From IMG/VR virus record IMGVR_UViG_2617271085_000020, positions 1 to 14,800 of that record: a DNA stretch of 14,800 nucleotides; one strand, given 5' to 3'. The notes under the pieces were generated by a model that saw nothing but the letters and a program-made list of their open reading frames with translations, was not told the origin of the DNA and ran no database searches. Positions 381-14,800 of the stretch are shown piece by piece (within the stretch, counting starts at the first letter, position 1; each line of letters begins with the position of its first letter). The position numbers and the translations under genes were made by a program. This DNA is from a virus. Taxonomy: Duplodnaviria; Heunggongvirae; Uroviricota; Caudoviricetes.

Positions 381-827
381 GTGGTTTTTGGGAATAGGCA
401 TCAACCTGATACGGAACCAGAAGAGCCTGTAAGTGTGGGGATACCAACAGCTGTTCCCAAGGGGAATTCTGGACGCAAATCATTCTCAAATCTTCGCAGA
501 GAGCTAACTGATGAGGAGCTTAGCTCTGCTGCGGTACAACGAATGTTGCTTGATGAGATTGAAAGATTAGATGGTGAATGCAATGATTTGCGTGTGATTC
601 GCGATAAGTTTCATACATCCGATAAACTTGTAGGAGTATTAGAAGAAAAATTCAAAACAAAAATTGCTTTGGAAATAATGCATGTGACATGTTTTCTAAT
701 TTCAGGCTCTGCCTTTGGATATGCCACTTCAAACTGGTCAACTCAGCCGACTGCCGCTGTGCTCGCGTTAGCTTTTGGTAGTGTGCTCACTGTCGGGGGG
801 ATAGCTGCAAAGGTGGTCAAGCCATGA
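381..827 (+). CDS. Hypothetical protein with a coiled-coil-like N-terminal part and two C-terminal hydrophobic (transmembrane-like) segments
   Basis: The ORF track gives 357..827 from a TTG. GTG at 381 is in the same frame and is preceded by AAAGGAG (368-374) at 6-nt spacing, so it is the more likely start. The C-terminus (IALEIMHVTCFLISGSAFGYA ... TAAVLALAFGSVLTVGGIAAKVV) is hydrophobic. The stop overlaps the next start (ATGA at 824-827). No family recognised. Confidence 0.45.
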   Translation: MVFGNRHQPDTEPEEPVSVGIPTAVPKGNSGRKSFSNLRRELTDEELSSAAVQRMLLDEIERLDGECNDLRVIRDKFHTSDKLVGVLEEKFKTKIALEIMHVTCFLISGSAFGYATSNWSTQPTAAVLALAFGSVLTVGGIAAKVVKP

Positions 828-1180
828 AAGTTAATATTACAGCAATTCGCGAACCTGGAAACTTAGATAAGGAACGAATTGTCATTCGAGTTGACAGTTC
901 ATGCAATATTGGAGAGTTTATACTGCTACAAACGGGATTTGAGAATGAGTCGGTAAACACTGGTATTTACGAAACATTTTGGTTTCCGGATAAACCTGTT
1001 CGCGCTGGCGATCTTGTTGTCGTATATACAAAAGCAGGAAAAAGTAGTGAAAAGAAAAGTAATGATGCAACATCACATTTTTTCTATATAGGGAAAGCGA
1101 TTCCTATTTGGAATAGAAATGAACAAAGCGCGGTACTTATGCATGCACCTGAGTGGCAAAGTTTTCAGGCTGTGCTTTAG
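824..1180 (+). CDS. Hypothetical 118-aa soluble protein, translationally coupled to the upstream ORF
   Basis: ATG at 824 overlaps the upstream TGA (ATGA). The ORF is complete and ends with TAG at 1178-1180. No recognisable motif. Confidence 0.45.
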   Translation: MKVNITAIREPGNLDKERIVIRVDSSCNIGEFILLQTGFENESVNTGIYETFWFPDKPVRAGDLVVVYTKAGKSSEKKSNDATSHFFYIGKAIPIWNRNEQSAVLMHAPEWQSFQAVL

Positions 1181-1203
1181 TTTTTAAAAAGAAAATAATT
1201 AAT

Positions 1204-1221
1204 GGGCGATTTTAATCGCCC
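1204..1221 (-). terminator. Intrinsic terminator hairpin between the convergent transcription units (GGGCGA-loop-TCGCCC)
   Basis: Perfect GC-rich inverted repeat at 1204-1221. On the minus-strand RNA it is followed by a U-rich tract (AUUAAUUAUUUUCUUUUU) and sits 30 nt downstream of the tape measure stop at 1251. On the plus strand the downstream flank is not U-rich, so it mainly serves the minus-strand operon. Confidence 0.45.
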
Positions 1222-1250
1222 GTATTGCCTGTGAATAACTTGAAGATTAT

Positions 1251-3596
1251 TTACATTTTGCGTCTGTTTCCTGATTGAACAATTGATGTGATAATCTTTT
1301 CTTGCTTCTTGAGTTGTTCAGCAAACCAACGCTGATCAGTCACGTTTCCTTGTACGATTACACGAGCATCAATAGGCTGAGTCTTAGACTCGCTTTGATT
1401 ATTCAAGAAGTCTTTCAAATCTCCGTTAGTTCTCTGATCAACGACTCTTTCACCACCATCAAGCAGCCATGTTCCTTCTCTTGGAATTTCAGAAATGCCA
1501 TCGTGAGCCATACCAGTCATATTCACAGATTTCATGGACATAACTTGTCCTAAAACTTGCGCATAACTTGATGCGGCTAATGCGTATCCCAAAGGACCAG
1601 GATAAGTTGCCATTGCTTTAGTTGCAGATTGATATGCGTTTAACATACCATTTGCGATAGCTGTTCCTTTAGCTACTGCAAACGCAGCTTGAGCGGCTTT
1701 AGAGTTTTCACCCGAAATACCGGAAATAACACCAGCCATGCCTTGAGCAAAACCGTTATACATTCCCATTTTCGTTTGAATTTCCATCATAGCAATATTT
1801 TCAGACTGAACAGAATAAGCCTTGTCTAGTCGTCTTTTTTGCTCTAAAAATTGTTCATGCGACAAAAGTCCAGATTCGTACATTTTCTGATTCTGTTCTC
1901 TGAACCTTTCGAACTGTTGATTTAATGCTTCTTGCTCTAATGCCATTCTTTCTTCATCAGTTGCGAAACCAATTGAATTCAAGTTCTGCATATTCACCTG
2001 ATTAGCATCAATCTCTTTAATTGCTTTCATCTTCTCTTGATGTGCAATTTGGAGATTCTCTAACTGTTCGTTGTATTGCTGTTCTGAAATCAAGTTCTGT
2101 TGACGTTTAATATCCAGTTCTTGCTTTTGAATATCGAACATTTGATTCATCGACTGAGTGATAATGCCAATGTCAGCAGGATTAGCCTTAAGACTGTCGG
2201 AGAATTCTTTTGACGAGTTAATCAATAGAGAATTACGACGTTCTAGGAATTGCTCCTGTGAGATTATCCCTTTGTCTCTTAGTTCTTGAAGCTTTGTTAG
2301 TGCTTGCTGAGTCTGATTAATCTGAGAAGCATATGAACGTCCTTCTTGAGCAATAACCGCAACGTCTAACTGTTTCAGAGATTCAACTGCCTGAGCACGA
2401 TCAGCCATCATTTTGTCATAATCAGCTTTGGCTTTAGCCATTGCAGCTTTACGTTCCCTTTCGGCTTTATCAGCAGCAGATTTTCTTTCACGTTCAGCTT
2501 TATCAGCAGCGTCTTTTTCTTTCTTCGCTTTTTCTTCTAAGACTTTCTGGCGAGCCTTATTTGCCATCGTTTCTTGTTCAGCTAAACGAACTAGCTGATT
2601 AACTTGTTTTTTAAGCAACTTGGCATTTTCTGCAATAAACGCCTGACGCTTTTCAATTTCGATTGCTTCAACAGACTTTCCGATATTCTGCACTTGACCA
2701 GAGGACATACCAGAAGGAGTTATACCCTTTTTGTTATTCTCTCTTAGCCATTTCGCAAAAGACGTTTCACTCCAATCAATACCATCCATCCACTCATAAA
2801 GATTGTTAAATTCACGAACTAATGGACTAGCAGCTTCGACCGTGAATTCATTAGTTGCTTTCTTCAAAGAATTCATGTTTCTTTCATATTCTTTGAATTC
2901 GTCGGCAACGTCTTGAGTAATTGAAACTGTTTGACCTTGAATTGCGTTTAATGCGTCTTGGGTATTAGAAAAATTCTGTAATGTTGAAATCAAATGAGAA
3001 CCATCAGACGCCATTGATTCCATTGCGTTAGTAATTTCAGCAGATGATTTACCAGCGGCTCTTAATTGATAGAACGTGTCGATTAATGCTTTAATACCAC
3101 CTTCGGCATCACCAGCATATTTTGCATAATCTTCAAGTTTTAAACCCCATTCTTCTAAGTCGTCGGCAATACCACCACCGCCAGCTCTCAAAGAATCACC
3201 GAGTTTATCCATTGCGTCTTTGTTTAAATCACCGAATTTCTCAACGTCCATTCCGGTAGCTTTGAACGTTGATTGCAACTGTTGAAGCATTTCAATAGAA
3301 ACGCCAGTTGTTGTGTTAACCTGATTTAATACGTTAACAGTTTCAGCAGCTTTATTAATTGCAGCAAAACCAGCACCTGCAACTAACCCCGCTGCACCCA
3401 ATGCGCGTAACGCAGGGGACATACTTTGAATCGTGCTGAGACCATCGCTGAGACCATTTAGTGGACCTGTGAAATTACTAAAAAGACCCTGAGCGGCTGA
3501 ATCAAGTTTATTCAGTTCGTCCATAGAGTCTTTTACAGCAGTAGACAGTCCTTTATTATCTCCGCGAATCTCAACATCATAACGAGAATTCGCCAT
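1251..3596 (-). CDS. Tail tape measure protein (781 aa)
   Basis: Large, strongly coiled-coil protein (e.g. KAKKEKDAADKAERERKSAADKAERERKAAMAKAK) with Gly/Ala-rich hydrophobic segments near both ends (LRALGAAGLVAGAGFAAI; AFAVAKGTAIANGMLNAYQ ... PGPLGYALAASSYAQVLG). It lies immediately downstream of a G/T chaperone-like ORF pair, with its ATG embedded in TAATAATG at the end of the T ORF. The assignment rests on architecture and context, not on a database hit. Confidence 0.6.
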   Translation of the reverse strand: MANSRYDVEIRGDNKGLSTAVKDSMDELNKLDSAAQGLFSNFTGPLNGLSDGLSTIQSMSPALRALGAAGLVAGAGFAAINKAAETVNVLNQVNTTTGVSIEMLQQLQSTFKATGMDVEKFGDLNKDAMDKLGDSLRAGGGGIADDLEEWGLKLEDYAKYAGDAEGGIKALIDTFYQLRAAGKSSAEITNAMESMASDGSHLISTLQNFSNTQDALNAIQGQTVSITQDVADEFKEYERNMNSLKKATNEFTVEAASPLVREFNNLYEWMDGIDWSETSFAKWLRENNKKGITPSGMSSGQVQNIGKSVEAIEIEKRQAFIAENAKLLKKQVNQLVRLAEQETMANKARQKVLEEKAKKEKDAADKAERERKSAADKAERERKAAMAKAKADYDKMMADRAQAVESLKQLDVAVIAQEGRSYASQINQTQQALTKLQELRDKGIISQEQFLERRNSLLINSSKEFSDSLKANPADIGIITQSMNQMFDIQKQELDIKRQQNLISEQQYNEQLENLQIAHQEKMKAIKEIDANQVNMQNLNSIGFATDEERMALEQEALNQQFERFREQNQKMYESGLLSHEQFLEQKRRLDKAYSVQSENIAMMEIQTKMGMYNGFAQGMAGVISGISGENSKAAQAAFAVAKGTAIANGMLNAYQSATKAMATYPGPLGYALAASSYAQVLGQVMSMKSVNMTGMAHDGISEIPREGTWLLDGGERVVDQRTNGDLKDFLNNQSESKTQPIDARVIVQGNVTDQRWFAEQLKKQEKIITSIVQSGNRRKM
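2448..2510 (-). repeat. Near-tandem 30-nt repeat (two copies, 33-nt period) inside the tape measure gene, encoding AADKAERERK twice
   Basis: Plus-strand copies at 2448-2477 and 2481-2510. The peptide is identical in both copies but three codons differ synonymously (gcc/gct, agg/cgt, cgt/aga). Confidence 0.6.
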
Positions 3597-3598
3597 TA

Positions 3599-3946
3599 TT
3601 ATTTCCTATTTTTAGCTTTTGCTTTCGCAAGAAGTTTCGGGTCGAACATAGATTCCATTTTCTTTCTGTTGGCTTCTGCGGCTTTTTTCTGTTCTTCTTC
3701 CAGTTCTTCAGGAGATTTAAAAACTTTATCCTTGATGAACATGAAATCTTTCAGTTTTAATTTCTTCGAACCTTCTTTTGTAATATTTGGATTATTAGCA
3801 AAAACAGAAAATGCTATATGCGCTTGATGTAAGTCATTTACAGCAGGACCTTGAGGTTCAATGAAAGTTTCATATATCCACAGTTCATAGAAATCCTTAA
3901 TACTCATATCCAGAATTTCACGTTCGGTAAAACCTCTACGCAACAT
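3599..3946 (-). CDS. Tail assembly chaperone T-like ORF, probably expressed as a G-T fusion by -1 frameshift
   Basis: The ORF is in the -1 frame relative to the upstream 98-aa ORF. Its reading frame is open upstream of its own ATG as far as 4093, overlapping the last ~37 codons of the G-like ORF. There is no Shine-Dalgarno sequence in front of its ATG (aaattcagaaccATG). It sits immediately upstream of the tape measure gene and has a basic, Lys-rich C-terminus. Confidence 0.45.
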   Translation of the reverse strand: MLRRGFTEREILDMSIKDFYELWIYETFIEPQGPAVNDLHQAHIAFSVFANNPNITKEGSKKLKLKDFMFIKDKVFKSPEELEEEQKKAAEANRKKMESMFDPKLLAKAKAKNRK

Positions 3947-3981
3947 GGTTCTGAATTTGAATATTTTATAAGGATTCTGCC

Positions 3982-4278
3982 TTAATTCTTTTCCACAGCG
4001 TGAGTTTCTTCTTTCATAACAGAAGCAGCAGAAACAGCAGCAGAAAGTTGAGCGCGAACGGTGGTATAAAGTTGTTTGACTTGTTCGATATTTTCAAAAA
4101 CAGGGGATCCGTCTTCGTTCTCAATGCATTTCAGAATCATATTATCGGTCTGGTCTTCCATAAAAAAGAATTTACCAAATTCTTCAACGGTCATTGCGCG
4201 AACATAAAATTTAAAACCTTTGATTTCTACAACTTCTCGTTTTGCTCCGAGAGCGGCGATCATTTCTTCGAATTTCAT
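3982..4278 (-). CDS. Tail assembly chaperone G-like protein (98 aa)
   Basis: Small acidic ORF directly upstream of the T-like ORF and tape measure gene, preceded by an AGGA ribosome-binding site. This is the canonical G / GT / TMP arrangement of long-tailed phages. Confidence 0.45.
   Translation of the reverse strand: MKFEEMIAALGAKREVVEIKGFKFYVRAMTVEEFGKFFFMEDQTDNMILKCIENEDGSPVFENIEQVKQLYTTVRAQLSAAVSAASVMKEETHAVEKN
3988..3994 (-). promoter_or_regulatory. Candidate -1 ribosomal slip site G GAA AAG near the end of the G-like ORF
   Basis: mRNA reads ...gct gtg gaa aag aat taa. A -1 shift at GAA-AAG would read GGA-AAA and continue in the open T frame. The heptamer is not a canonical X XXY YYZ motif, so the exact site is uncertain; the shift could occur anywhere in 3985-4093. 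Confidence 0.2.
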
Positions 4279-4323
4279 TTCTTAATCCTATAGTTAATTT
4301 AAATGTTTACTTTATTTATGCCG

Positions 4324-4356
4324 AAAAAGGAGCTATCACGAAGATAACTCCTTTTG
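4324..4356 (-). terminator. Stem-loop (8-bp AAAAGGAG/CTCCTTTT stem with inner 4-bp TATC/GATA stem) between the 106-aa gene and the G-like gene; possible terminator or attenuator
   Basis: Inverted repeat read directly from the sequence. The U-run forms part of the stem, so terminator strength is uncertain. It is followed on the minus strand by cATAAATAaag, which resembles but does not match a T4 late promoter (TATAAATA). Confidence 0.3.
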
Positions 4357-4357
4357 A

Positions 4358-4678
4358 TTACTCGATGAATTGGAAGAAATATCCAATCATTCTGAATCCT
4401 TTATGAATATATTCTTGCTGAAAAATACAAACAGCATTTTGTTCAAAGAAAGGACCATTGATTTCTACGATTTCATTATTCTTGAAATGATAACGAGGTT
4501 TCTTTTTCTGAGTGCTAACAATAAAAACGTTTTGGTCGTTTTGAAGATTCCTTTTTATACGAGTTTCTTTCACCAGTTCAAAGCTATAAGGAATAGTCAT
4601 CGACTCTGGATTGTGCTCTTTGATAAAAATAGAATCGAGTTCGTCAACACGATATGTTTCAAAATCATTTAAGTTCAT
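4358..4678 (-). CDS. Hypothetical protein (106 aa from the ATG at 4678)
   Basis: The ORF track begins at 4711, but the ATG at 4678 is preceded by a strong ribosome-binding site (aaAAGGAGAcaaaATG) and avoids overlap with the upstream gene. No family recognised. Confidence 0.5.
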   Translation of the reverse strand: MNLNDFETYRVDELDSIFIKEHNPESMTIPYSFELVKETRIKRNLQNDQNVFIVSTQKKKPRYHFKNNEIVEINGPFFEQNAVCIFQQEYIHKGFRMIGYFFQFIE

Positions 4679-4694
4679 TTTGTCTCCTTTTCTT

Positions 4695-5234
4695 TTATTT
4701 AGTAGCAACACGACGAACCGTTTTTATGATGTCATTACCAATATCAGTCCAAGAACCAATAGATTTCTTACGAGTTTGATGACGTTTGAAAATAGCAATA
4801 ACTCTTTTGTTCTGTTTTTTAACATTTGTCTTAATCAGAATCGTTCTGTTAATACCATCTTTCTTTTGTTTGACTGCCTCTAGGTTTCTACGAGTTTTTA
4901 ATCCTGGAATGTTACCGAACTGGTTAGTCGAACCTCTTACCCCTGTTGGAACATATTTGTTAATCGGACTGTTATCATCTATCAAGTGTGAAAGATAATT
5001 CGCCTGAACGTCTTTGATAAAGATTCTGTTAGTTGTTCCTTCTTTATCAATCTTAAATCTGAACCCAACGGCGTTCTTGGTGAAATTCACAGGTCCTTCA
5101 ACACGTCGATTAATCTTTCGTTGTAACTCAACAGAAGCGAGTTTAGACGCTTTAGTTACTCTTTTAGAGAACTGATCAGATTCTTTTATTCGCCATTTGT
5201 CTAAGTCTTTTTTAACTCCACCAAGTTTCGCCAT
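4695..5234 (-). CDS. Hypothetical highly basic (Lys/Arg-rich) 179-aa protein without cysteine
   Basis: Complete ORF whose start overlaps the stop of the upstream 70-aa ORF at 5234. The composition suggests a nucleic-acid-binding or internal virion protein. No family recognised. Confidence 0.45.
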   Translation of the reverse strand: MAKLGGVKKDLDKWRIKESDQFSKRVTKASKLASVELQRKINRRVEGPVNFTKNAVGFRFKIDKEGTTNRIFIKDVQANYLSHLIDDNSPINKYVPTGVRGSTNQFGNIPGLKTRRNLEAVKQKKDGINRTILIKTNVKKQNKRVIAIFKRHQTRKKSIGSWTDIGNDIIKTVRRVATK

Positions 5235-5446
5235 TACATACTCCCAAATGAAACAATTGCAAAGATATATTTCATAGCTTCATCAAGAGGAACGATAGGA
5301 AGAACTATTCCGAAGAAACTCAATGCACACGGAACAACGATGTAATTATAAACAGCCATTGCAATCATCGCGTAAATGAATTTCTTTTTAAAGTCCCCTG
5401 TCATTGCTGGAAGTTTCTTGAATGCAGCTTTCATTTTTTCAATCAT
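5234..5446 (-). CDS. Small hydrophobic membrane protein (70 aa), holin-like in size and topology
   Basis: Basic N-terminus (MIEKMKAAFKKLPAMTGDFKKK) followed by two to three hydrophobic segments. It overlaps the end of the nuclease gene by 8 nt. It lacks the charged C-terminal tail typical of holins, so the holin call is tentative. Confidence 0.4.
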   Translation of the reverse strand: MIEKMKAAFKKLPAMTGDFKKKFIYAMIAMAVYNYIVVPCALSFFGIVLPIVPLDEAMKYIFAIVSFGSM

Positions 5447-5894
5447 ACTTCACCTTTAAATTTTGTTTGTACAAGTTAATGAGAGATTTTTTATCACCAA
5501 CTGGATTTATGTCCTCTGCTAATAAAGTCTCTTTCATTTGCTTTAACGTCATTTTCGAAAAGCGCTTTGATAGGTCTGTTACAAGTTGAGGATGAATAGG
5601 ATTTTTAGAATTATCTTTTTCGAGATAAGTTACCAATCTTTTTAAAAAATCAATATATTCGATGTGCTTCGCTAAACCTGAATACATGAATTGATGTTTT
5701 AATCTGCCCTCAAGGACGTTTGCCTGTGCGAGTAATAATCCTCGGCATCGTCCAGCTTGAGAACCATCAAGAGCGTGGTCATGGTCTAAATGGGCTTTAT
5801 TAACATCGGTAATTTCTATCCCAGTTAAAGCACATCTTTTATTTTGTTTATCAAAAAGGGTTTTCTTGTAATTATTTATTTCTTTTCGTTTCAC
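5439..5894 (-). CDS. Endonuclease VII-like (T4 gp49 family) junction-resolving nuclease, 151 aa, GTG start
   Basis: The motif KAHLDHDHALDGSQAGRCRGLLLAQANVLEGRLKHQF aligns with the T4 Endo VII catalytic core (ANHLDHDHELNGPKAGKVRGLLCNLCNAAEGQMKHKF, recalled from memory). The downstream ...VTYLEKDNSKNPIHPQLV matches ...LTYLKSDYTQNNIHPNFV. The catalytic Asp/His/His/Asn/Glu positions are conserved. Confidence 0.6.
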   Translation of the reverse strand: MKRKEINNYKKTLFDKQNKRCALTGIEITDVNKAHLDHDHALDGSQAGRCRGLLLAQANVLEGRLKHQFMYSGLAKHIEYIDFLKRLVTYLEKDNSKNPIHPQLVTDLSKRFSKMTLKQMKETLLAEDINPVGDKKSLINLYKQNLKVKYD

Positions 5895-6168
5895 TGTCTA
5901 TCACCGCTAATCGAATTTCGATTTCTCTAATTCGATTGTCTATACTTTTCATATCACCTTTAAACTCCTTAAACGAATCACGAACGTTGGTTAATTCAGT
6001 ATTTGCGTTTGAATCGGTCGCACTATTAAGAGCAACGCTTTTCTCGATTTCAGATAGTCTCTGTTCGATTTTTAAAGCGTCGGCTTCCATTGCGTTCTTT
6101 TGAGACCAAATCCATCCAAAGCCAGCGCATAGCAGTCCCGCGAAAGAAATGATGGCTTCAACACCCAT
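5872..6168 (-). CDS. Membrane-anchored coiled-coil protein (98 aa): one N-terminal transmembrane segment then a coiled coil; possible spanin, holin or antiholin-like protein
   Basis: N-terminus MGVEAIISFAGLLCAGFGWIW is hydrophobic; the remainder is heptad-like and charged (EADALKIEQRLSEIEKS ... IREIEIRLAVIDSE). Preceded by an AAGGAG ribosome-binding site. Function not established. Confidence 0.4.
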   Translation of the reverse strand: MGVEAIISFAGLLCAGFGWIWSQKNAMEADALKIEQRLSEIEKSVALNSATDSNANTELTNVRDSFKEFKGDMKSIDNRIREIEIRLAVIDSETKRNK

Positions 6169-6229
6169 TTTCTTTCTCCTTTTAAGACCTCCATGTCTTA
6201 TTTAGAAAAACGGATTTGGGGGAAAGAAA

Positions 6230-9200
6230 TCAAACTTTACTGATAAAATAAACTGCCCTTGAGGCTTCTGCTCGGTTTAATTCGACCGTATAAGTTAAAT
6301 CAACAGCTTGTCCCGCTTCGATGTATGCGACACCACCGTTTGAACCGTTTAGAGATTGAGATTGAACGTAAACAACTTCTTGGCCGTTTGAGAGTCTTAA
6401 CCACGCTTTGCCACCACCCCAACCAGTACCACCAGAATAAGTTCTTCCGGCGATTGCAACGTTAGGAATAGCAATCATTCTTCTCCAACCAACAGCAGGA
6501 ATATGAACAGATCCCCACGGATCGACAAATCCCATTTTGATAACGTCACCTTCGATTCTGTCAGCGTAAACAGTCCCTGTGAAATAACCAGAACCACCTC
6601 TGATTTCTCCTGAGAAATAACCAGAATCAGCTTGAATATTTCCTTTAACTGTAACGTTTTGGAATGAAGCCCAACCATCTTTTCTAATTGTCCATCCTTG
6701 AGTACCACCGGAAGGAACCCAGTTATCAGAGGATATTTCCCAGGCAATTTGTGCTGAACCGATTTGAGCATTACCAATTTTCGCTGTTGTAATAGCACCG
6801 TCTTGAATCTGCGCGTTATTAATTGCAGCATTAGCAATTTTGGCATTATCAATTGCAGCATTAGCAATTTGAGCATTACCGATCGAAGCATTGCGAATCA
6901 TCGCGCTTTGTAAATAAACTCTATCATCTGCGACCATGAACGGTGGAACAGCATTAGGAGCAGTGTTATTATTTGTTATAGCAATCTTATCAGCGTTAAA
7001 AATAATGCTTGAGGCTTTATTTCCCGCAGCGTCCTTAGATGCCAACATACTAATACCAGCTACGACACCATCGGCGTTTGTAGAAACAGCCCATTTACTG
7101 TTAACAGTTCCTGCTAAATCGTCAACGCTTGCTTTTGCTTCGGTAGAAACAGTCGCGACCATATCCGTAGTTTCAGCTTTTAATTGGCTGATTTGTGAAG
7201 CTGTTGCAGCACGATCATCCGCTTGGGTTTTCTCAACTTCGGTTATAGCAGAGTTTAACTTACCGTCAAAATCAGCCGTTTGAATCGTAATAGCCTGATT
7301 GATAGCGCCTTGCGTTTCATTCGTTATCTGAGTATGCAACGTTGTATTAGACGTGCTGATCTTCTGATCAATCTCGGTTGTTACTTCCTGCTTAGTTGAT
7401 GTTATCTGAGTATCGGTATAAGCATTTGCGAGTTCTAAAGCGTCCTCGATAGCACCATCAACTCGTTGGTCTAAATCAAGCAAGTCGTTTAACTGGTCTT
7501 TCATATCTTCTGTCCATGGAATATCCCATTTCATGTTGATATAAACTGATTCAGTCCAAACTAATTGGTCTTGTCCGAAAACGTCATACCATGCAGCTCG
7601 AACATAATATTCACCGTCAACTAACGGGAAGTTTTCAATGAACTGGCTAGAACTCAACTGAACTTGATTAATGTCAGTGAATTCAGGATTATTTGAAACT
7701 TGAATAACAGTTCCAGAATAATCAGGTGCAACACTCATTGGATCGTTCCAAGAACACATCAATAATCCAGGACCATTCGAAGCAGTAAAACCGATTATTG
7801 CAGGAGCTTGATTATTTCTTACGATTAATTCAGTAGGTTCAGATCTTAAACCTGAATAACCAACAGCAGTGATTTCAAATTTAATTTCACGACTGATACC
7901 GTTTTGCTGGTTCATTCGTAAATCATAAATGAAGCTCAAATCTTTAGTTCTGTATACAACAGGTCTTTGTCCAGTGATTTTGATTTCGTAATACTGAAAT
8001 ACTTGTTCGAAAGTCTGTTGAACGCCGTCAACTTCGAATTTCTCTGAACTCTGATTATCCCATGCAAATTCAAATTGCGTTTGTTGCGTAACGTTGTTAT
8101 TAAACTCAGAGTTAACAAGTCTTAGACCACGAACTTTAGGCAGATTATAAACGACATCAGGGTTAACATTCATTGAATAAACCCATTCAGACGTATAGAA
8201 AACACCAGAAGCACAAACACGAATATCATATTTCTGCAATGGGTCCATGTTCATAATCAAGTAAGAATTTCCTGATGTGAATCCTGCTTGAGTCCATTGG
8301 TTTGTTCCTGCAACTGCATATTGAATATAAAAACCTGAACGGTTAAAATCTTGCTCTGAATTCCATGAAACTTTAAAAGTTCTTCCTAAAGCTGTTTCTG
8401 AAACGCTTGAAACTTTAAGATTCGTAGGAGCAATCAAGTATCCTTTGTTTGGTACGTTTGAACCGTTGTTATTAGGATCTTTCGCATAGTCTAAATCGGT
8501 ATAAACTTCTTCAATATATTCAGTAGCTGTGATGTTAACGATACCAGCAACGCCCTTATTCATTGAACGACTAACGTTAGTAACGCGCCATAACGAATCT
8601 TGCAAATTTAATTCATCAAAGTTAACTCTGATAACATCCCAAACTTGAATAGTATAGGAATCAGGAGAACTAAAGCTGATAATCTGTTTTAACAGTGATT
8701 TGTTACGTTCGATTGAAGCAAGTTTGTCCAATTGGTCTTTAGATTTCACAAAACGATAATTAACATCTTTCGCGATAATACGTTTATCATATTGAATTGT
8801 TTTGTCGGTCGTCACGTCAGATGGATAACGAAGAACTTGCTCGGAATAATCGATTGCAGGATCTTGATATTTCACGTTCAGCGTATTGTAATATTCCTCT
8901 GAACCACCTGAATTCAACGAAACTGAACCAGCAGAAATATTTTCTTCATCGAAATCAAATGAAACAACATCAGGACCATCGATTTTGCAATAAACTTGTC
9001 CGAATGATTCGAAAATCATTCCGTTAAAAGCACCTGCAAGCTGAGTTAAGTTTTCTTTAAACGTTGCGTTAGGGTCTGTTGCACCATCGGAAAATAGTTG
9101 ATTGCTTAAAGCATAATTTGCAGCAGCTTTAAAACTATCAAGGTTAATTTTATCAAGTGAAACTCCTAATCCGTATCGTTCGTTCGTCAGATAATCGACA

Positions 9201-9910
9201 ATCTGACTTGCACCGTTGCGAGATGGAACGATTTGTCCCGTGTTTAAGTCAGTAATCAAACGTCCTCTAACATCAACAGCGACCTGACTGTTAGGTTGTA
9301 GGATATCAGCTTGGTTTTGTAAGTCTGAATTTCGTTTCTGCATTACGATACAGCAAGAAGCGACACCGTTACCTGTAGCAGAAACAGGCCAGCCACTTGG
9401 GTCATTTCCTAAGTATTGTTCAGCAAGTTTGAAATGATGACCTTGTTCTTTACCAACAGAGAATTCAACTTGCACATAGTCTTGATATTGAGAAACGATT
9501 GAACCTCTTGAAACAATTCCATCACGATAAACGGCATCATTCAGAATACGCTTGTTATCGATATAAAGGTTTTTAAAGCTATCAACTTCACCTTCGGCAA
9601 TTGCAAAAATTTGCACCAAATAAGTCGTATCATTTCCTACAGCATCCCAAACGTTAATTGTTCCTGTGCGTTGTTCACCGTAGATAATCGGTAATACAGT
9701 TGAAGGATCAGACGTTGTTCCTAATGTTGTTGCGGTATCACTTGTATTAAATCGAGGAACAGTTGGTTGCATAGCTGTTGACATTAAAGCGGAAACAGCA
9801 GCAACAGCAACACCAATACCGATTGAAATAGCTAATGCCATCCCAGCGGCATAAGCAGCAAGACCAGCAGAAGCACCAGCGATGATTGCACCAATTGCGA
9901 CAATAGCCAT
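6230..9910 (-). CDS. Central tail fibre / host specificity protein, lambda gpJ-like, with an N-terminal gpI C-domain-like segment (1226 aa)
   Basis: The N-terminal 90 aa (hydrophobic Gly/Ala-rich stretch then ...STVLPIIYGEQRTGTINVWDAV) resemble the lambda gpI C-terminus (...NVLPVLYGEMRVGSRVVSQ). The remainder has fibronectin-III-like segments and a C-terminal region like lambda J (PPFMVADDRVYLQSAMIRNASIGNAQI ... GEIRGG ... DRIEGDVIK versus PMFVAQGNQIFMNDVFL ... TLRAEKIVGDIV). Lambda sequences are recalled from memory. Confidence 0.75.
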   Translation of the reverse strand: MAIVAIGAIIAGASAGLAAYAAGMALAISIGIGVAVAAVSALMSTAMQPTVPRFNTSDTATTLGTTSDPSTVLPIIYGEQRTGTINVWDAVGNDTTYLVQIFAIAEGEVDSFKNLYIDNKRILNDAVYRDGIVSRGSIVSQYQDYVQVEFSVGKEQGHHFKLAEQYLGNDPSGWPVSATGNGVASCCIVMQKRNSDLQNQADILQPNSQVAVDVRGRLITDLNTGQIVPSRNGASQIVDYLTNERYGLGVSLDKINLDSFKAAANYALSNQLFSDGATDPNATFKENLTQLAGAFNGMIFESFGQVYCKIDGPDVVSFDFDEENISAGSVSLNSGGSEEYYNTLNVKYQDPAIDYSEQVLRYPSDVTTDKTIQYDKRIIAKDVNYRFVKSKDQLDKLASIERNKSLLKQIISFSSPDSYTIQVWDVIRVNFDELNLQDSLWRVTNVSRSMNKGVAGIVNITATEYIEEVYTDLDYAKDPNNNGSNVPNKGYLIAPTNLKVSSVSETALGRTFKVSWNSEQDFNRSGFYIQYAVAGTNQWTQAGFTSGNSYLIMNMDPLQKYDIRVCASGVFYTSEWVYSMNVNPDVVYNLPKVRGLRLVNSEFNNNVTQQTQFEFAWDNQSSEKFEVDGVQQTFEQVFQYYEIKITGQRPVVYRTKDLSFIYDLRMNQQNGISREIKFEITAVGYSGLRSEPTELIVRNNQAPAIIGFTASNGPGLLMCSWNDPMSVAPDYSGTVIQVSNNPEFTDINQVQLSSSQFIENFPLVDGEYYVRAAWYDVFGQDQLVWTESVYINMKWDIPWTEDMKDQLNDLLDLDQRVDGAIEDALELANAYTDTQITSTKQEVTTEIDQKISTSNTTLHTQITNETQGAINQAITIQTADFDGKLNSAITEVEKTQADDRAATASQISQLKAETTDMVATVSTEAKASVDDLAGTVNSKWAVSTNADGVVAGISMLASKDAAGNKASSIIFNADKIAITNNNTAPNAVPPFMVADDRVYLQSAMIRNASIGNAQIANAAIDNAKIANAAINNAQIQDGAITTAKIGNAQIGSAQIAWEISSDNWVPSGGTQGWTIRKDGWASFQNVTVKGNIQADSGYFSGEIRGGSGYFTGTVYADRIEGDVIKMGFVDPWGSVHIPAVGWRRMIAIPNVAIAGRTYSGGTGWGGGKAWLRLSNGQEVVYVQSQSLNGSNGGVAYIEAGQAVDLTYTVELNRAEASRAVYFISKV
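6816..6875 (-). repeat. Tandem 30-bp direct repeat (two copies, about 27/30 identical) in the J-like gene, encoding the N-A-x-I peptide repeat region
   Basis: The 20-mer aattgcagcattagcaattt occurs at 6821-6840 and again at 6851-6870 with similar flanks. The protein here reads IANAAIDNAKIANAAINNAQI. Confidence 0.6.
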
Positions 9911-10326
9911 TATTTTCTCCTGTTAAAAATTAATTCGTATTCAAAATCTTTTACGTTTATCAAAGCGTATTTGTTGTTGTGTTCAATAATTGCTTTGTCG
10001 TTAAAGACAATCGACGCAACGTAATAAACTCGGCGTCTGTATGTTTTTTTAATTAAGACAATTGACCCTGTTTCGATAATGTTTGATTTTTCGAAATGCT
10101 TTTCACAAGCTTCTAAAACGTTATTAAAACCTGTAAGTTCTTTGCAGTGTTTTAAACCCGATTGAACAGAGTCATATTTGGAAATAAGTTTGCTTGCGTA
10201 ATCTGTTCCGCAAGTCATATCGATATATTCAGCGACAAGGATATTACAGTCGTTTTGACCGTATTTGTGTTCTTTGTTGATATAACGATTTAATAATTTT
10301 GATAAGTCAGCTTGAAATTTAAACAT
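9910..10326 (-). CDS. Lambda gpK-like tail assembly protein, NlpC/P60 (papain-like) domain only
   Basis: The motif KYGQNDCNILVAEYID resembles the lambda K catalytic-Cys region (HGVTDCYTLFRDAY), with a downstream His (IIEHNN). The stop overlaps the J-like start (TAATG at 9908-9912). The likely start is the ATG at 10326 (ribosome-binding site GAGGTG); the ORF track starts at GTG 10338. There is no JAB/MPN half. Confidence 0.45.
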   Translation of the reverse strand: MFKFQADLSKLLNRYINKEHKYGQNDCNILVAEYIDMTCGTDYASKLISKYDSVQSGLKHCKELTGFNNVLEACEKHFEKSNIIETGSIVLIKKTYRRRVYYVASIVFNDKAIIEHNNKYALINVKDFEYELIFNRRK

Positions 10327-10360
10327 TTTAAGATTCACCTCTGACTTTATTTAGAGCCAA

Positions 10361-10386
10361 AAAAAGACCCCGTTAGGAGTCTTTTA
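10361..10386 (-). terminator. Rho-independent terminator on the minus strand (AAAAGACUCC-UAAC-GGGGUCUUUU followed by UUU)
   Basis: On the minus-strand RNA the stem includes one G-U wobble pair and is followed by a U7 run. On the plus strand the same stem has a C-A mismatch, so it is oriented for the minus strand. It sits 20 nt after the 162-aa gene stop and directly before the gpK-like ribosome-binding site. Confidence 0.6.
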
Positions 10387-10405
10387 AGATTGAACAATAA
10401 AACGA

Positions 10406-10894
10406 TTAGCCTTCTGGAGTTGGAGCAGTCAAATCAACCAAAGCTTCGGCAATTGGACCACCATCAACACTCAGAGTCATAGCCTGTGCAGCAACTTCTG
10501 ATTCACCACCGGAATAAGTAGCGCTTGACAGGAAACCGTTATACATTTTTGCAACACCGATTTCTTTAGAAGCATCCATCCAATAAACGATTTTGAACTG
10601 ACCACGTTTACCATCTTCCGCAAGCTTATAAAGCTGATCATGAATAGACCCAGGAATATAGTTAACAGTCAAATCGATATCAGGAACAGAACCACGACCA
10701 ACCAGTTTACGGCTGTATTTGTGAGTAAAGTTAGGAGCAACGATTACCTCACGTTCGATACCAGTCGTAGGAAATGCGCCAACTTCAGGAACTTCTACGA
10801 ATTTCTCTGAGTCGATATCTTTGTTCAATACGTCAGAGTTGAAAAATACACTGACGTAAGAGCCAGCGAAAATATCATATGCTTTATCAGCCAT
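10406..10894 (-). CDS. Probable abundant virion structural protein (162 aa), possibly a major tail / tube-like protein
   Basis: Complete ORF with an AGGA ribosome-binding site, flanked by a stable hairpin upstream and a strong terminator downstream, which suggests high expression relative to neighbours. A loose resemblance to small siphovirus tail tube proteins (...KLAEDGKRGQFKIVYW...) is from memory only. Confidence 0.3.
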   Translation of the reverse strand: MADKAYDIFAGSYVSVFFNSDVLNKDIDSEKFVEVPEVGAFPTTGIEREVIVAPNFTHKYSRKLVGRGSVPDIDLTVNYIPGSIHDQLYKLAEDGKRGQFKIVYWMDASKEIGVAKMYNGFLSSATYSGGESEVAAQAMTLSVDGGPIAEALVDLTAPTPEG

Positions 10895-10936
10895 TTTAAA
10901 TATCCTTTATTAAGTAATAACGTTATTATTTAGATG

Positions 10937-10956
10937 AAAGGGACTTTCGTCCCTTT
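10937..10956. other. Perfect 8-bp hairpin (AAAGGGAC / GTCCCTTT) in the fibre to 162-aa intergenic region; GAAA tetraloop on the minus-strand RNA
   Basis: Read directly from the sequence. On the plus strand it is followed by a T-rich tract (terminator-like for antisense transcription). On the minus strand it lies upstream of the 162-aa gene and could be an mRNA processing or stability element. Confidence 0.3.
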
Positions 10957-10959
10957 TTA

Positions 10960-13815
10960 TTATTTAGCAAGTTCTAAAGCATCAAGACGCGCTTTTGTTT
11001 CTTTCAAATCAGCACTTAATTCCTTGATAGCATTAACAAGCAACGCGTTTACAGCAGCAGAGTTAACACCAAGAATTTCATCTTCGCCGAAAGAACTAAC
11101 AGCTTCTGGTAATACTTCTTTCAGTTCTTGAGCAATAATACCTGCTTCGCGAGTTACGAACGAATATTCAGTTTCTTTCAAATCTGATTTCTTATCGTAA
11201 ACGTAACCAGTTAACGTATTAACCTTATCAACTGCGTTTTCGATTTTTTCAAGATTTGATTTCAGACGTTTATCGGAAGTTGAAACCCAAGAAACAGCAT
11301 GGGCAGCACCATCAACGCTTCTAAATGTAAAGTTTGCACCTCTAACATGAAGCATGGCTTCATAAGCGCCGCCTGCTGGATTATAAATGTCCATTCCAGC
11401 AGACCATTCGGTTCCCCACTGAACAGATTTCCAAATGTTAATGCATTTATCAGTTGAACCCGCTTCTACGATCATTCCAGCAGGACGTTCACGCCATGCT
11501 CCCCAATCAGCCCAGCCATCAACTTGACCAACAATTAATGCGTTTGCGCTGCCTGTTCTGATATTATGAACATATACGCCACGAGAATCGTTTGGAGAAG
11601 AAACGCGCATAGTGGTTAATGAATTAATTCCCGCGTGGTCGAATGTTGCAACATGAACGCTATTTGCCAGAATTTCTAAGTTTCCATCAGTTCTTTGACG
11701 AATACCGGTGTCACCATCACCAAACGCAATTGAGTTTCCGCCTAGCACGTTAAGAGTATTAACACCGAAACTTGTTATCTGTCGGGTTTCAACTTTAGGA
11801 GTATCAACAATATTCGGTGATGCGAATCTTCCGTTTATATCAAATTCATAAATGGACTGATTTTTTCCGGCCATCGCAGCATGGTTCGGTTCAGAAACAC
11901 GTATTACACCTTTTCCGTACTGTGCACCGGCTCGAATTATTCCCATTTCAAAACGAGTATGATATCCATGCTGAGTTGACGTATTTTGCATTGCATATCC
12001 GGGATAATAATCGCTTTCGCCTGGAATAGACCCAAAGTCCAGTAAAACCGGAGGCGGCTGTTTCCATTGATCAGCCCAAGCGTGACTGTTTGTTGCTGCC
12101 CACTGAACACCACTAATTTCAACTCGGTTATCAAGAACTGCCATCGTGTTAATACCATTGGCATTAAGTTGAAGATGATTCTGTTTCAAAATAACAGCAG
12201 ATGATTGACCGGTGACCATGTTATTCTGGAAAAGAATGTCTGTATTCGCATCGGTCTTACCTAGCAACCAAGAGTTTTCTTTACCGTCGTTTTGTCCGCT
12301 AATATAAGAAGATCCGGCAGTTGCACTTATAAGCTTATACGCAGGACCGCCGCCATGTGCCTCAAATCTATTAGTTTTAAAGTTACCAGTTTCGTTCAGT
12401 GATGCAATCCAATTATCTGCACCAGTGCCATGCCACCATGTTAATGCTTGTGCGTATTTAGGATTATCGTGATGTGCCCATGCTAGTTCGTGCCACCATG
12501 AAGCTTCACCACATGCTCTAAAGTTTCGCATACGGTTAAAAGCTTGCGTAGATTGAGGCCAGTTGACCATGGAATAAATGTCATGCGTTCCGGGTGACTT
12601 ACCAGAAGTCACTATTCCCGCAAGAGGATGGGTCTGTCCACTTACTCTCAGACCATCAACTGAATCAATAAACGTAGCACCAGTTCCTCTCAGATAGTTA
12701 TGATATTTACCGGCATTTGACAATCCGAAATAAGTGTATCCGTCTCCGATTCCGTTTCCATCGGTCGTTGTATCGATTTTAAGCAAAGATGTGCCAGCAG
12801 GTGCCAGACCGTTAACGTTTCCTGCACCATCGCTTCTATATCTAATCGTAACTTGACGATTAAAAAAGTTTTGAGATCCTGCAACACTTGATACAACAAC
12901 ATTATTGGAATAAGTGTCTAACCAACCGTCTTCTCTCCATTTAAATCCTGTATCGGAATCTCCCATCATAATACTGTTAGCACCTAAACTATTAGGATTA
13001 GGACCCAAGTTAATATAATTTGCTTTGATACCGTCGGCATTCAATTTAGGAACAGTCAAGTCGCCAGTCATTGTGTCACCAGCTTTTGAAACCTTGGTAT
13101 TAATCATGTCGGTCAAAGTCTGATTATCAACAGTCAAACGATCATTAACAGCTTTAATCTTTGAATCTGCGTCGGCTTTGTTAGCGTCAACTTTCGTGTT
13201 AATAGTCGTATTGTTTAAATCAATCTTAGCGTTAAGACGATTGTCCAGCTCGGTGTTCGCTTCGGTCTGTTTCGTGTCGTTAGCGTTAACTTTATTCTCT
13301 AAAGCTGTCAGATTCGTTCCTGTTGCGTCGGAGACTTTCTTAATCTCTGAATCAACATAGTCTTTACGCGTTGCGTTATCAGCTTCAATTGGTGCAACTG
13401 GTAAACGTAAACGACCATTAACGAAATCATAAGTTGAATAACCTGTTGAAGCGTTTTTACCGTTCGAAACAACAACTTTCAAAGAGCCTTCGGAATCAGT
13501 TTGCTTTTCAGATTTCAATTCGACTTTTGCTTTACCGTGTTCATCTTCAAAAACGATAGAACTTTTCTCGGAATTTTTCAGAGAAATATCAGTGTCAGAT
13601 TTTAATTTATTTGCTTGAACGTCACCGATAAAAGTCTGTCCACCTTCGACGACAGAATCAGCACCATTACCGATATTAACGATTTCAGTTCCACGTTTCG
13701 TGAAAATGCTTTTATCGGTCATGTTAATAGCAATTTCACCTTCAAGCATTTTTGAAGCATCAGGTTTACGTCCTGCGACATCAGTCCTATAGTGTTTGAC
13801 TTTGTTATTAGCCAT
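10960..13815 (-). CDS. Long tail fibre protein (951 aa) with T4 gp37/gp36-like N-terminal region and C-terminal S74-type intramolecular chaperone domain
   Basis: N-terminus MANNKVKHYRTDVAGRKPDASKMLEGEIAINMTDKSIFTK resembles T4 gp37 ([41 protein letters not shown]). Internal TRKDYVD and GDTMTGDLTVP motifs are fibre-typical. The C-terminus (...TSDKRLKSNLEKIENAVDKVNTLTGYVYDKK ... GIIAQELKEVLPEAV ... LVNAIKELSADLKETKARLDALE) matches the autoproteolytic chaperone of T5 pb1 and K1F endosialidase-type fibres. T4 sequences are recalled from memory. Confidence 0.8.
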   Translation of the reverse strand: MANNKVKHYRTDVAGRKPDASKMLEGEIAINMTDKSIFTKRGTEIVNIGNGADSVVEGGQTFIGDVQANKLKSDTDISLKNSEKSSIVFEDEHGKAKVELKSEKQTDSEGSLKVVVSNGKNASTGYSTYDFVNGRLRLPVAPIEADNATRKDYVDSEIKKVSDATGTNLTALENKVNANDTKQTEANTELDNRLNAKIDLNNTTINTKVDANKADADSKIKAVNDRLTVDNQTLTDMINTKVSKAGDTMTGDLTVPKLNADGIKANYINLGPNPNSLGANSIMMGDSDTGFKWREDGWLDTYSNNVVVSSVAGSQNFFNRQVTIRYRSDGAGNVNGLAPAGTSLLKIDTTTDGNGIGDGYTYFGLSNAGKYHNYLRGTGATFIDSVDGLRVSGQTHPLAGIVTSGKSPGTHDIYSMVNWPQSTQAFNRMRNFRACGEASWWHELAWAHHDNPKYAQALTWWHGTGADNWIASLNETGNFKTNRFEAHGGGPAYKLISATAGSSYISGQNDGKENSWLLGKTDANTDILFQNNMVTGQSSAVILKQNHLQLNANGINTMAVLDNRVEISGVQWAATNSHAWADQWKQPPPVLLDFGSIPGESDYYPGYAMQNTSTQHGYHTRFEMGIIRAGAQYGKGVIRVSEPNHAAMAGKNQSIYEFDINGRFASPNIVDTPKVETRQITSFGVNTLNVLGGNSIAFGDGDTGIRQRTDGNLEILANSVHVATFDHAGINSLTTMRVSSPNDSRGVYVHNIRTGSANALIVGQVDGWADWGAWRERPAGMIVEAGSTDKCINIWKSVQWGTEWSAGMDIYNPAGGAYEAMLHVRGANFTFRSVDGAAHAVSWVSTSDKRLKSNLEKIENAVDKVNTLTGYVYDKKSDLKETEYSFVTREAGIIAQELKEVLPEAVSSFGEDEILGVNSAAVNALLVNAIKELSADLKETKARLDALELAK
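10963..11277 (-). other. Peptidase S74-like intramolecular chaperone domain (C-terminal ~105 aa of the fibre), predicted self-cleavage at the Ser preceding DKRLK
   Basis: Conserved S-D-x-R-x-K motif and the downstream amphipathic helices characteristic of the family. Confidence 0.6.
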
Positions 13816-13867
13816 TTCATTCTCCTGTTGAAAAATAACATCCTTGTTATTTAATTAATCAAATTTT

Positions 13868-14800
13868 TTAGAATGTTCCGGCGTCTAACGTTTCACCTTG
13901 AGCTACTGCGTTAACATCAACAGGAGTTGGTTTATTCGTAGGAGAATAAACTTCTTGACCTTTGACTTTCACCGAATCAGATTGAATTTCTTTAGTATTT
14001 AGATTGTCGATTTCAACAAGCGGGGCGTTTATCTTTTTGCGTACAGTCAAATAATCCTGAATCGTCAGTGAACCTTGTAACGTTCCTCCCGTAATAGGAA
14101 GCGCTCCAATGTCTTCTGTTGTAGGACGTTCAAGTTCTGTATAGACCTTAACCCAATTCGATTCATTGATTGTCCCGTCGGGATTCATCTGCTTGTTACG
14201 AATACGTATGCTAGGATTACCGATACTTGCTCCAATCAGTTCCCATCCTTGACCACTTGGATGCTGAATTGCCATAGCAGACGTGCCAGAGTTATATGGA
14301 TTATCAGTGTTAACCCCATCAACAGTTATCCATCTGTTACCAGTCAAAAGACCTAAATCTTTTACACCTTCGATTTCTTCTGTTCCTGCACCAACACCAT
14401 AATCGCCAACGTTTAACGGAGTTGAATACTCAGCGTAACCTGAAAATAATTTACCGTCTGGACTTAAAGTATAGTTGTTAATTACAGCGGAACTCTCAGA
14501 CCCGTTTGTTTCTTTCTTCGTAACATAAGCATCAAAGATATGATAAAGACCGGATTGTCTTTCTCTTGTATGTTCTGAATCGACAACATAAAGATTTCTA
14601 AATCGAAGTTTTTTCTTATTCATTAACGCATTGTCTAACAATTCGGAAACTTCATCATCAGATTCAAATATGCTTAAAACAGTGTTATCAATTGTTTGAT
14701 CACCTGATAATTTAACTTCAAAATCTTCTCGATAATCTTCGAGTGATTGAACTTGATTTGAAAATCCTATTACCGGAAAAGCAGCAACATTTTCAGTTTC
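13868..14800 (-). CDS. Tail fibre protein, 5'-truncated by the window edge (C-terminal 310 codons present)
   Basis: The frame is open from the stop at 13868 to position 14800 with no stop codon, so the ORF-track start (TTG at 14641) is only an internal codon. The C-terminal motif TEDIGALPITGGTLQGSLTIQDYL resembles T4 proximal-fibre (gp34) C-terminal motifs (SDIGALPSDNATMGNLTIRDFL, from memory). Confidence 0.6.
   Translation of the reverse strand, partial: ETENVAAFPVIGFSNQVQSLEDYREDFEVKLSGDQTIDNTVLSIFESDDEVSELLDNALMNKKKLRFRNLYVVDSEHTRERQSGLYHIFDAYVTKKETNGSESSAVINNYTLSPDGKLFSGYAEYSTPLNVGDYGVGAGTEEIEGVKDLGLLTGNRWITVDGVNTDNPYNSGTSAMAIQHPSGQGWELIGASIGNPSIRIRNKQMNPDGTINESNWVKVYTELERPTTEDIGALPITGGTLQGSLTIQDYLTVRKKINAPLVEIDNLNTKEIQSDSVKVKGQEVYSPTNKPTPVDVNAVAQGETLDAGTF

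Follow-up and report, generated by a model that had tools for sequence, protein, structure and literature searches.

Reordered tail gene blocks in an Escherichia coli prophage and its relatives

The first 14,800 nucleotides (nt) of the IMG/VR virus record IMGVR_UViG_2617271085_000020 (the whole stretch analysed, here called the window) are the right arm, ie the right-hand end, of a temperate siphovirus-type Escherichia coli prophage of roughly 33-35 kb, in which the tail genes depart from the usual order. We consider it likely that an intact and ordinary tail set has been reshuffled within one lineage into blocks, plausibly tolerated by way of a short motif belonging to each block. To judge from sequence comparison, the module is scrambled but not built from foreign parts. 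The order of tail genes, from tube through chaperones, tape measure, distal tail and hub to tip, varies so little that it serves annotators for naming genes which are otherwise unrecognisable. A preliminary description of the window had taken the cluster for a recombinant of modules from different tail lineages. That interpretation is not upheld, since the tail genes are orthologous to those of canonical-order relatives at comparable divergence and the rearranged genomes form one clade.

Gene order in the window

The minus strand carries every notable open reading frame from 14800 to 1251. Read in the direction of transcription, these frames encode fibre 1, fibre 2, a tube protein of 162 amino acids (aa), a DUF6950 protein, a J-like tip protein, a 98-aa protein, endonuclease VII, proteins of 70, 179 and 106 aa, the tail assembly chaperone parts G and T and the tape measure protein (TMP), after which there is a terminator (Table 1). 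The preliminary description had given this same order, with G-T-TMP downstream of the tip genes and a terminator closing the cluster, and the gene identities and the hairpin found after TMP agree with it. It was also right in calling the 781-aa product a tape measure, the match to phrog_13674 running from end to end, and in seeing T4-type and S74-chaperone elements in the fibres, where phrog_1699, Peptidase_S74 and a near-threshold gp37_trimer are matched.

The 162-aa protein is identified as the tail tube protein by its phrog_158 profile and by position, its orthologues directly preceding G-T-TMP in the canonical (S-type) relatives described below. When the tube profile was compared with PDB, the sole match was to a fimbrial subunit (E 0.018). 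The T frame is -1 relative to G and is open for 112 nt across the G stop, like G/GT of lambda. The canonical XXXYYYZ slippery heptamer is absent from the G/T overlap (3982-4093), and the sole candidate there is GAAAAG just before the G stop.

Table 1. Features of the window. Positions are those of the whole 14,800-nt stretch; fib1 and fib2 are the genes of fibres 1 and 2.
Feature	Position	Strand	Evidence or remark
E. coli core chromosome, intergenic beside ldtB/ybiS, outside the element	1-256	none	99.6% identity to >5,400 complete E. coli genomes
Prophage right end, attR region	257-356	none	approximate placement, from where homology to empty-site E. coli genomes ends, at 256
Two convergent cargo genes, 156/148 aa (C-terminal hydrophobic stretch) and 118 aa	357-1180	+	open reading frames; overlapping, converge on TMP
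Hairpin GGGCGATTAAAATCGCCC between convergent TMP and cargo genes; late-operon terminator	1204-1221	none	terminator scan and fold
Tape measure protein (TMP), 781 aa	1251-3596	-	phrog_13674 E 9e-62, residues 7-780 of 781
T part of tail assembly chaperone, 115-aa open reading frame	3599-3946	-	weak: Pfam Phage_tail_T E 2e-4; phrog_337 E 1e-8
G-type tail assembly chaperone, 98 aa	3982-4278	-	weak: Pfam Phage_TAC_13 E 0.003; phrog_344 E 2e-6
Spacer, 106-aa gene to G	4279-4357	-	terminator-like hairpin and U-run 4325-4355, then CATAAATAAAG motif (TAAATAA 4312-4318)
106-aa protein (117 aa from GTG 4711), small beta-barrel, candidate neck or tail-terminator	4358-4678	-	no family match
179-aa protein, HK97-gp10-like tail-completion or neck candidate	4695-5234	-	phrog_1924 minor tail E 2.4e-7
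70-aa hydrophobic protein, two predicted membrane-spanning stretches	5234-5446	-	phrog_2024 (unknown function) E 4e-10
T4-type recombination endonuclease VII, 151 aa	5439-5894	-	Pfam Endonuclease_7 (PF02945) E 8e-11; Endonuc-dimeris (PF09124) E 5e-6; phrog_423 E 4e-35
98-aa protein, N-terminal hydrophobic segment and coiled coil	5872-6168	-	sequence; coiled-coil Pfam matches sub-threshold only
Spacer, J to 98-aa gene	6169-6229	-	carries TCTAAATAAGA 6198-6204
J-like central tail tip/fibre protein, 1226 aa, hydrophobic N-terminus	6230-9910	-	phrog_31 E 2.5e-68
DUF6950 protein, 142 aa (138 aa from ATG 10326), lambda gpK / RcGTA g14 position	9910-10338	-	Pfam DUF6950 E 1e-12
Spacer, tube to DUF6950, derived junction	10339-10405	-	intrinsic-terminator-like hairpin and U7 10362-10385, then CTCTAAATAAAG 10347-10353
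Tail tube (major tail) protein, 162 aa	10406-10894	-	phrog_158 E 1e-12; Pfam Phage_TTP_12 E 0.016, sub-threshold
Spacer, fib2 to tube	10895-10959	-	hairpin 10937-10956, then ATCTAAATAAT 10926-10932
Long tail fibre (fib2), 951 aa, T4 gp37-like region and C-terminal S74 intramolecular chaperone	10960-13815	-	phrog_1699 E 5e-101; Peptidase_S74 E 1.3e-13
Spacer, fib1 to fib2	13816-13867	-	carries TTAAATAAC 13847-13853
Fibre 1 (fib1), C-terminal 310 of 342 aa; gene start outside the window	13868-14800	-	full gene at 8920-9948 of locus L005

Displaced distal tail and hub genes

Genes equivalent to M and L of lambda are absent from the window itself (1-14,800), and the statement in the preliminary description that there are no M-like or L-like genes holds only so far. 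In all the rearranged relatives examined a pb9-like distal tail protein (Dit) and a DUF2163 hub are encoded at the other end of the prophage, outside the window. For the window's own genome we infer strongly from these relatives that the M/L equivalents are displaced and not missing.

The annotated relative E. coli PSS-15 has about 83% nucleotide identity to the window, and its element, about 34.5 kb long including an IS2, occupies the gap between ybiT and ldtB. At the left end attL is followed by the recombinase gene, a 58-aa gene, the hub and Dit genes reading leftwards, and then a lysozyme gene reading rightwards. Relative to G-T-TMP, Dit and hub are thus at the opposite prophage end and on the opposite strand. 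Both genes (Dit 186 aa, hub 217 aa) are intact, with 46-53% identity to the genes that lie between TMP and DUF6950 in the canonical relatives, and their layout beside ybiT is repeated in over 20 other loci, which come from E. coli, Citrobacter and metagenomes. The profile of the 186-aa Dit matched 8hqz_H (E 0.005) and T5 pb9 (E 0.06) in PDB, and there was a weak match to the Pfam family DTP-pb9_B-dom. The hub, which has 215 aa in canonical relatives, belongs to the DUF2163/PF09931 baseplate hub family (Phage_phiJL001_Gp84_N) and is weakly like the N-terminus of T5 pb3.

The idea that integration merely permuted the map was rejected, since cutting a circle at attP keeps the cyclic order and Dit-hub lie on the opposite strand. 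The strand difference cannot be produced by an attP cut, and the rearrangements are therefore true ones.

Arrangements among relatives

Relatives were gathered with the 179-aa protein and the hub protein as anchors. Many assemblies have chromosomal contigs on which identical proteins are encoded in this order, and the exact TMP is indexed in 213 blocks. Closed chromosomes with the order include CP101082.1, AP027709.1 and CP146665.1. The window order is present in seven complete E. coli genomes, in eight IMG/VR contigs at 45-84% protein identity (loci L043-48, L053 and L058), in L002/L003, and in a Pantoea prophage at a different chromosomal site. It is the standard order of a widespread, unnamed prophage sub-lineage and not of any described family. 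The preliminary description had named a standard arrangement in a known phage family as grounds against it, and this is half borne out. The canonical order is carried by about 45 of the 57 IMG/VR loci, by Proteus, Serratia and an unidentified enterobacterium (a Logan contig), and by the prophage-like part of DCP80, a GenBank Escherichia phage record; in these relatives small genes lie between J and the 179-106 pair. The contiguous series tube-G/GT-TMP-Dit/M-L-K-(I)-J is kept in the S-type relatives and broken in the window.

Table 2. Arrangements of the tail gene blocks in the family.
Type	Carriers	Order
S (canonical)	Proteus, Serratia, Logan contig, DCP80, about 43 IMG/VR loci	tube-G-T-TMP-Dit-hub-DUF6950-J-...-179-106-lysin-recombinase
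S'	two IMG/VR contigs, L054/55	canonical series, 179-106-lysozyme block inverted
K	Klebsiella L039/L042, IMG/VR L049-52, L067	tube-DUF6950-J-endoVII-179-106, recombinase and attP, hub and Dit inverted, lysozyme-G-T-TMP
E	the window's sub-lineage	tube-DUF6950-J-...-179-106-G-T-TMP-att; Dit-hub at far end, other strand
E2	two IMG/VR contigs (L065/66), otherwise E type	lysozyme/Dit-hub cassette flipped

At least five arrangements of the same tail gene blocks exist in the family (Table 2). Two derived junctions are common to E and K, namely tube next to DUF6950 and the divergent Dit/lysozyme pair. The integration modules are not alike from type to type (39-66% identity). A metagenomic contig of the K type runs without a break through the attP region, which suggests a non-integrated form.

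In a neighbour-joining tree of J, the 179-aa protein and DUF6950 (1,011 columns, no support values) all the E and K genomes fall into one clade; the canonical genomes are basal, and Serratia is sister to the E and K clade. The canonical order is taken as ancestral and the window order as derived because of this tree and, as an outgroup argument, because siphoviruses in general are canonical. No path from the canonical to the window order is shorter than a transposition plus an inversion, and another shift of G-T-TMP separates E from K. For each of tube, G, T, TMP, DUF6950, J, 179 and 106 the canonical-order relatives have an orthologue, at comparable divergence, and the scrambling would therefore be due to rearrangement inside a single lineage. 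The ratio of nonsynonymous to synonymous change (dN/dS) between the window and PSS-15 is 0.09-0.27 for every tail gene estimated, G, T and TMP included (0.27 for TMP), and these genes are apparently under purifying selection; the 106-aa gene is saturated at synonymous sites and gave no estimate.

Two of the loci found are unusual. The first (L042, Klebsiella pneumoniae UJNE01000001.1, 3237-12114) is a remnant of about 9.5 kb with only lysozyme-G-T-TMP and the divergent Dit-hub pair; it adjoins an insertion sequence (IS) transposase, and its chromosomal site is that of the full K-type prophage of another strain (L039). The other (L059, JBEBQJ010000175.1) is a 10-kb contig in a Sphingobacterium metagenome-assembled genome, with K-type TMP-T-G-lysozyme/Dit-hub 68% identical to the enterobacterial proteins, and its placement in Sphingobacterium is probably a binning error. 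Among the GTDB species-representative genomes there were no matches with the 179-aa profile, and the hub profile found one contig, in a Sphingobacterium metagenome-assembled genome.

Spacers and the oriented motif

The block borders coincide with spacers bearing CTAAATAA(A/G), often after a terminator hairpin. TAAATAA occurs 10 times in the window, nine times on the coding strand, and five of these coding-strand copies are found one in each of the five spacers longer than 50 nt. Together with the 35-nt spacer between G and T the five spacers amount to 359 nt, in which about 0.1 copy of TAAATAA would be expected by chance, as estimated from the rate in coding DNA. The motif comes after a terminator-like hairpin in three of the five, and two of those hairpins have a U-run.

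The pattern in the PSS-15 prophage is similar, with 14 of 23 motif copies in the 12% of its DNA that is intergenic. All but one of the 14 point at a phage gene 17-69 nt downstream, on both strands, and the remaining copy precedes the IS2 insertion. A back-to-back pair of motifs lies in the 49-bp spacer between Dit and lysozyme. Nine of the 10 motif copies at the Proteus locus, which has the canonical order, lie between genes and mark exactly the borders between tube and G, TMP and Dit, and hub and DUF6950.

CTAAATA is the putative late-promoter consensus of the T4-like phage Aeh1 and a variant of T4's TATAAATA (PMC1524935), and the family consensus CTAAATAA(A/G) equals it. On this likeness and its placement the motif is probably a phage-specific (late) promoter. 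Were it confirmed as a promoter, a T4-like multi-promoter late programme would be present in a small temperate siphovirus.

Proposed explanation and alternatives

The explanation that we prefer, an ordinary tail set reshuffled within one lineage, runs as follows. The set is lambda/RcGTA/T5-like, comprising tube, G/GT, TMP, Dit, hub, DUF6950 and J, together with the 179/106 pair and T4-like fibres. Its ancestral order, tube-G-T-TMP-Dit-hub-DUF6950-J-...-179-106, survives in most relatives. In the E type these genes have been cut into self-contained blocks and permuted as [fibres][tube][DUF6950-J-...-179-106][G-T-TMP], followed by the att site. The [Dit-hub] block is on the opposite strand at the distant prophage end, where it diverges from the lysozyme gene and adjoins the recombinase. 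With its own copy of CTAAATAA(A/G) before nearly every block, expression may be independent of neighbours, and permutations may in this way be tolerated. The spacers with the repeated motif may also be the sites of breaks and joins.

Several points weigh against this explanation. The position of Dit and hub in the window's genome is taken from relatives, of which the closest left arms are 91-96% identical over a comparable 2.3 kb. The tree carries no support values and has K and E interleaved, so that recombination among them is inseparable from repeated rearrangement. A scan of ten left-arm proteins revealed neither a gp55-like sigma factor nor any other dedicated polymerase factor, and the motif overlaps several TAA stop codons, which inflates its raw count. 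No replication gene was recognised in the prophage left arms (L021-L038), and some copies carry IS elements.

A further proposal gives the motif a larger part. In this family of Enterobacterales prophages a T4/Aeh1-like CTAAATA promoter on each small cassette would have freed the tail genes, and even those of the small and large terminases (TerS and TerL), from the nearly universal siphovirus order, and the cassettes (tube; G-T-TMP; Dit-hub; DUF6950-J-...-179-106) would have been repeatedly transposed and inverted with breakpoints at the promoter/terminator spacers. This is possible, and we put it forward only tentatively. If it is true, the family is a natural experiment, in which tail synteny is seen to be kept by co-transcription and not by assembly requirements.

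The mosaic origin given in the preliminary description, with T4-type fibres, a lambda-type tip and G-T-TMP from elsewhere, would suit the fibres, which are clearly modular (fib2 combines T4 long-tail-fibre PHROGs with the S74 chaperone and is far more variable than the rest), and also TMP, the most diverged of the core genes at 58-62% identity to that of PSS-15. It is very unlikely in view of the core tail genes, which are orthologous in canonical-order relatives at similar identity. Moreover the same blocks occur in at least five orders within one family whose rearranged genomes are one clade, the identity tables already point to G-T-TMP sharing its relatives with tube, J and 179, and T4 and lambda gave no DNA or close protein match. 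Neither do we think it likely that the element is a decaying, non-inducible remnant in which order became scrambled for want of selection for a working tail. The phage collection has no isolate of the family except the chimeric DCP80, the replication genes went unrecognised, and IS2 or IS5 insertions and the 9.5-kb Klebsiella remnant are known, all of which would favour such decay; but the structural open reading frames are all intact in many diverged copies at the low dN/dS values given above, the presence of one order in different genera and sites (Pantoea) implies transfer after rearrangement, and the K-type contig continuous across attP suggests a non-integrated form. That the order is an artefact of assembly or of the construction of the window is hardly credible. 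The one GenBank phage relative, DCP80, is itself chimeric, but the order recurs in independent assemblies, in the three closed chromosomes listed above and in 200-plus indexed blocks.

On the reading of a reshuffled ordinary set, a single family whose orthologous tail genes stand in at least five different orders or orientations offers matched natural comparators for what fixes the order elsewhere. Annotation by synteny and the calling of prophage boundaries can both mislead in such elements, with Dit and hub at the opposite end and TMP abutting the attachment site. Their value lies in the natural permutations of one tail module and in a candidate multi-promoter late programme.

Comparison with known tail systems

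With lambda (Z-U-V-G-T-H-M-L-K-I-J) the family shares the tube, the G/T pair with T in the -1 frame, TMP, a J-type tip bearing fn3 and tail-tip domains, the small protein that occupies the K position just ahead of J, and a hub set equivalent to M/L. It differs in that the window order is V-[K-like]-J-...-[179-106]-G-T-H, with the M/L equivalents about 30 kb away in the prophage map and on the other strand. The protein in the K position is DUF6950, with no recognisable MPN or NlpC/P60, and the candidates for Z/U-like proteins come after J, not before V, even in the canonical relatives.

In the gene transfer agent RcGTA, following the numbering that Bardy and colleagues reportedly used in 2020, the tube is g9, chaperones come next, and TMP is g11, Dit g12, the DUF2163 hub g13, the peptidase g14 and the megatron g15. 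The canonical relatives have exactly the order of this RcGTA/phiJL001-type tail tip and the same Pfam hub family, PF09931, whereas in the window's lineage the series is split into three separately placed blocks. Unlike RcGTA, which is domesticated, the prophage is mobile and has its own terminase, portal and recombinase. The T5 tail tip is similar in that the Dit profile matches pb9 and the hub N-terminus is weakly like pb3, but the tube, at 162 aa, is not of the duplicated pb6 type and the genome is temperate and about 33 kb.

In T4 the late genes are dispersed, with many TATAAATA-type promoters in front of them. The present family resembles this organisation in the oriented CTAAATAA that precedes most late genes of both strands by 17-69 nt, in the scattering of its structural genes in both orientations, with TerS apart from TerL, and in possessing a T4-type endonuclease VII and fibre domains. 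It differs in that no homologue of gp55, gp33 or gp45 was detected and in being a small temperate phage of siphovirus type, with a promoter that is only putative.

The element belongs neither to Demerecviridae or Drexlerviridae nor to any named lambda-like genus, the groups against which synteny was to be checked according to the preliminary description; no named family has the arrangement, and the sole related GenBank phage record is DCP80. Megablast with the whole window and tblastn with tube and hub found only this record among 50,697 phage records. Against the same records the capsid protein matched DCP80 and otherwise no isolate above 30% identity, TMP matched tape measures of other phages over just 23-30% of its length, and T4 and lambda had no DNA or close protein match to the window. 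The prophage head genes are only about 26% identical to those of any isolate. No account of the family or the arrangement was found in the literature on the ybiT prophage, DUF6950, DCP80 or displaced tape measure genes.

DCP80 (PQ671644.1, L001/L004) is filed under Straboviridae/Gaprivervirus. Its first 28 kb or so are a relative of the prophage family, joined to T4-like genes; rIIA is duplicated in opposite orientations, and spackle is present twice. The record looks like a chimeric assembly of a T4-like phage and a prophage.

Fibres, tip proteins and smaller genes

The gp37_trimer match of the 951-aa fibre reached 21.5 bits, 0.2 under the cut-off of 21.7. Among relatives fib2 is much more variable than the other genes, with 64% identity to PSS-15 and patchy matches in L002. 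The N-terminal 150 residues or so of fib1 are a paralogue of the tube protein (hhalign of the tube family against fib1 N-termini: 98.5%, E 2.8e-15, 142 columns), and the C-terminus is short and fibre-like, with weak fibre PHROG matches at residues 217-335. The tube-like domain suggests that fib1 may be a ring-forming fibre anchor. In relatives N-domains of the fib1 type head proteins of 406-699 aa.

The Pfam domains of the J-like protein are Phage_Tail_Tip (the DUF1983 tail-tip domain; E 2e-23), Phage-tail_3 (E 3e-5) and fn3. The DUF6950 protein next to it was previously called gpK-like, which is right for its position and for nothing else: neither MPN nor NlpC/P60 domains were recognised in it, DUF6950 being the only match, and a sequence-profile search of PDB gave no relative. 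The DUF6950 family has an invariant G-x-N-D-C-N motif and no invariant His, and the NDCN is suggestive of a Cys peptidase.

The 179- and 106-aa proteins matched nothing in Pfam, and a sequence-profile search of PDB gave no meaningful match. Their genes follow J in the canonical relatives as well, and in place of the 'five-gene insert' described earlier they are better regarded as a conserved pair of the family, outside any insert, and as candidates for neck or tail-completion proteins. Because M/L equivalents exist elsewhere, the two are not cryptic M/L proteins; the earlier suggestion that the 162-, 179- and 106-aa proteins might be hidden M, L or tube homologues is sustained for the first of them, as the tube, and fails for the other two as M/L.

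The endonuclease VII gene is situated inside the tail operon, overlapping the 98-aa gene on one side and the 70-aa gene on the other, and is missing in the Proteus and Serratia relatives. The 98-aa and 70-aa proteins may be holin/spanin-like, since the lysozyme gene is far off in the left arm.

Prophage setting and cargo

The insertion site of the element in E. coli is between ybiT and ldtB. Among its genes is that of a large serine recombinase, which in the PSS-15 prophage has 499 aa and is encoded next to ybiT. Contigs with the exact window proteins run on into ldtB, ybiR, mntR, mntS, opgE and ompX. Beyond the fibre end of the window the source contigs encode proteins of 132 and 100 aa, a protease-capsid fusion, a portal, a 160-aa protein and a GpA-type large terminase. 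TMP is the last structural gene of the window's prophage, beside attR.

The small terminase (181 aa, phrog_57 E 6.5e-18) is encoded at 6447-6992 of L023 and at 3353915-3354460 of the PSS-15 record. It is about 6.5 kb from the large terminase, on the other strand and with oppositely oriented genes between, so the packaging module is split too.

The two genes at 357-1180 had no Pfam, PHROG or PADLOC matches. They are kept in L008-L013 and missing in PSS-15, where TMP abuts ldtB, and they resemble prophage-end cargo, ie a moron or a candidate defence pair. In the left arms (L021-L038) varying cargo is placed between conserved genes. Examples are a CAP12/PCTIR TIR protein with a YuaX-like partner, a 584-aa reverse transcriptase, YadA-anchor adhesins of 191-658 aa, and GIY-YIG or NUMOD3 homing-endonuclease-like genes.

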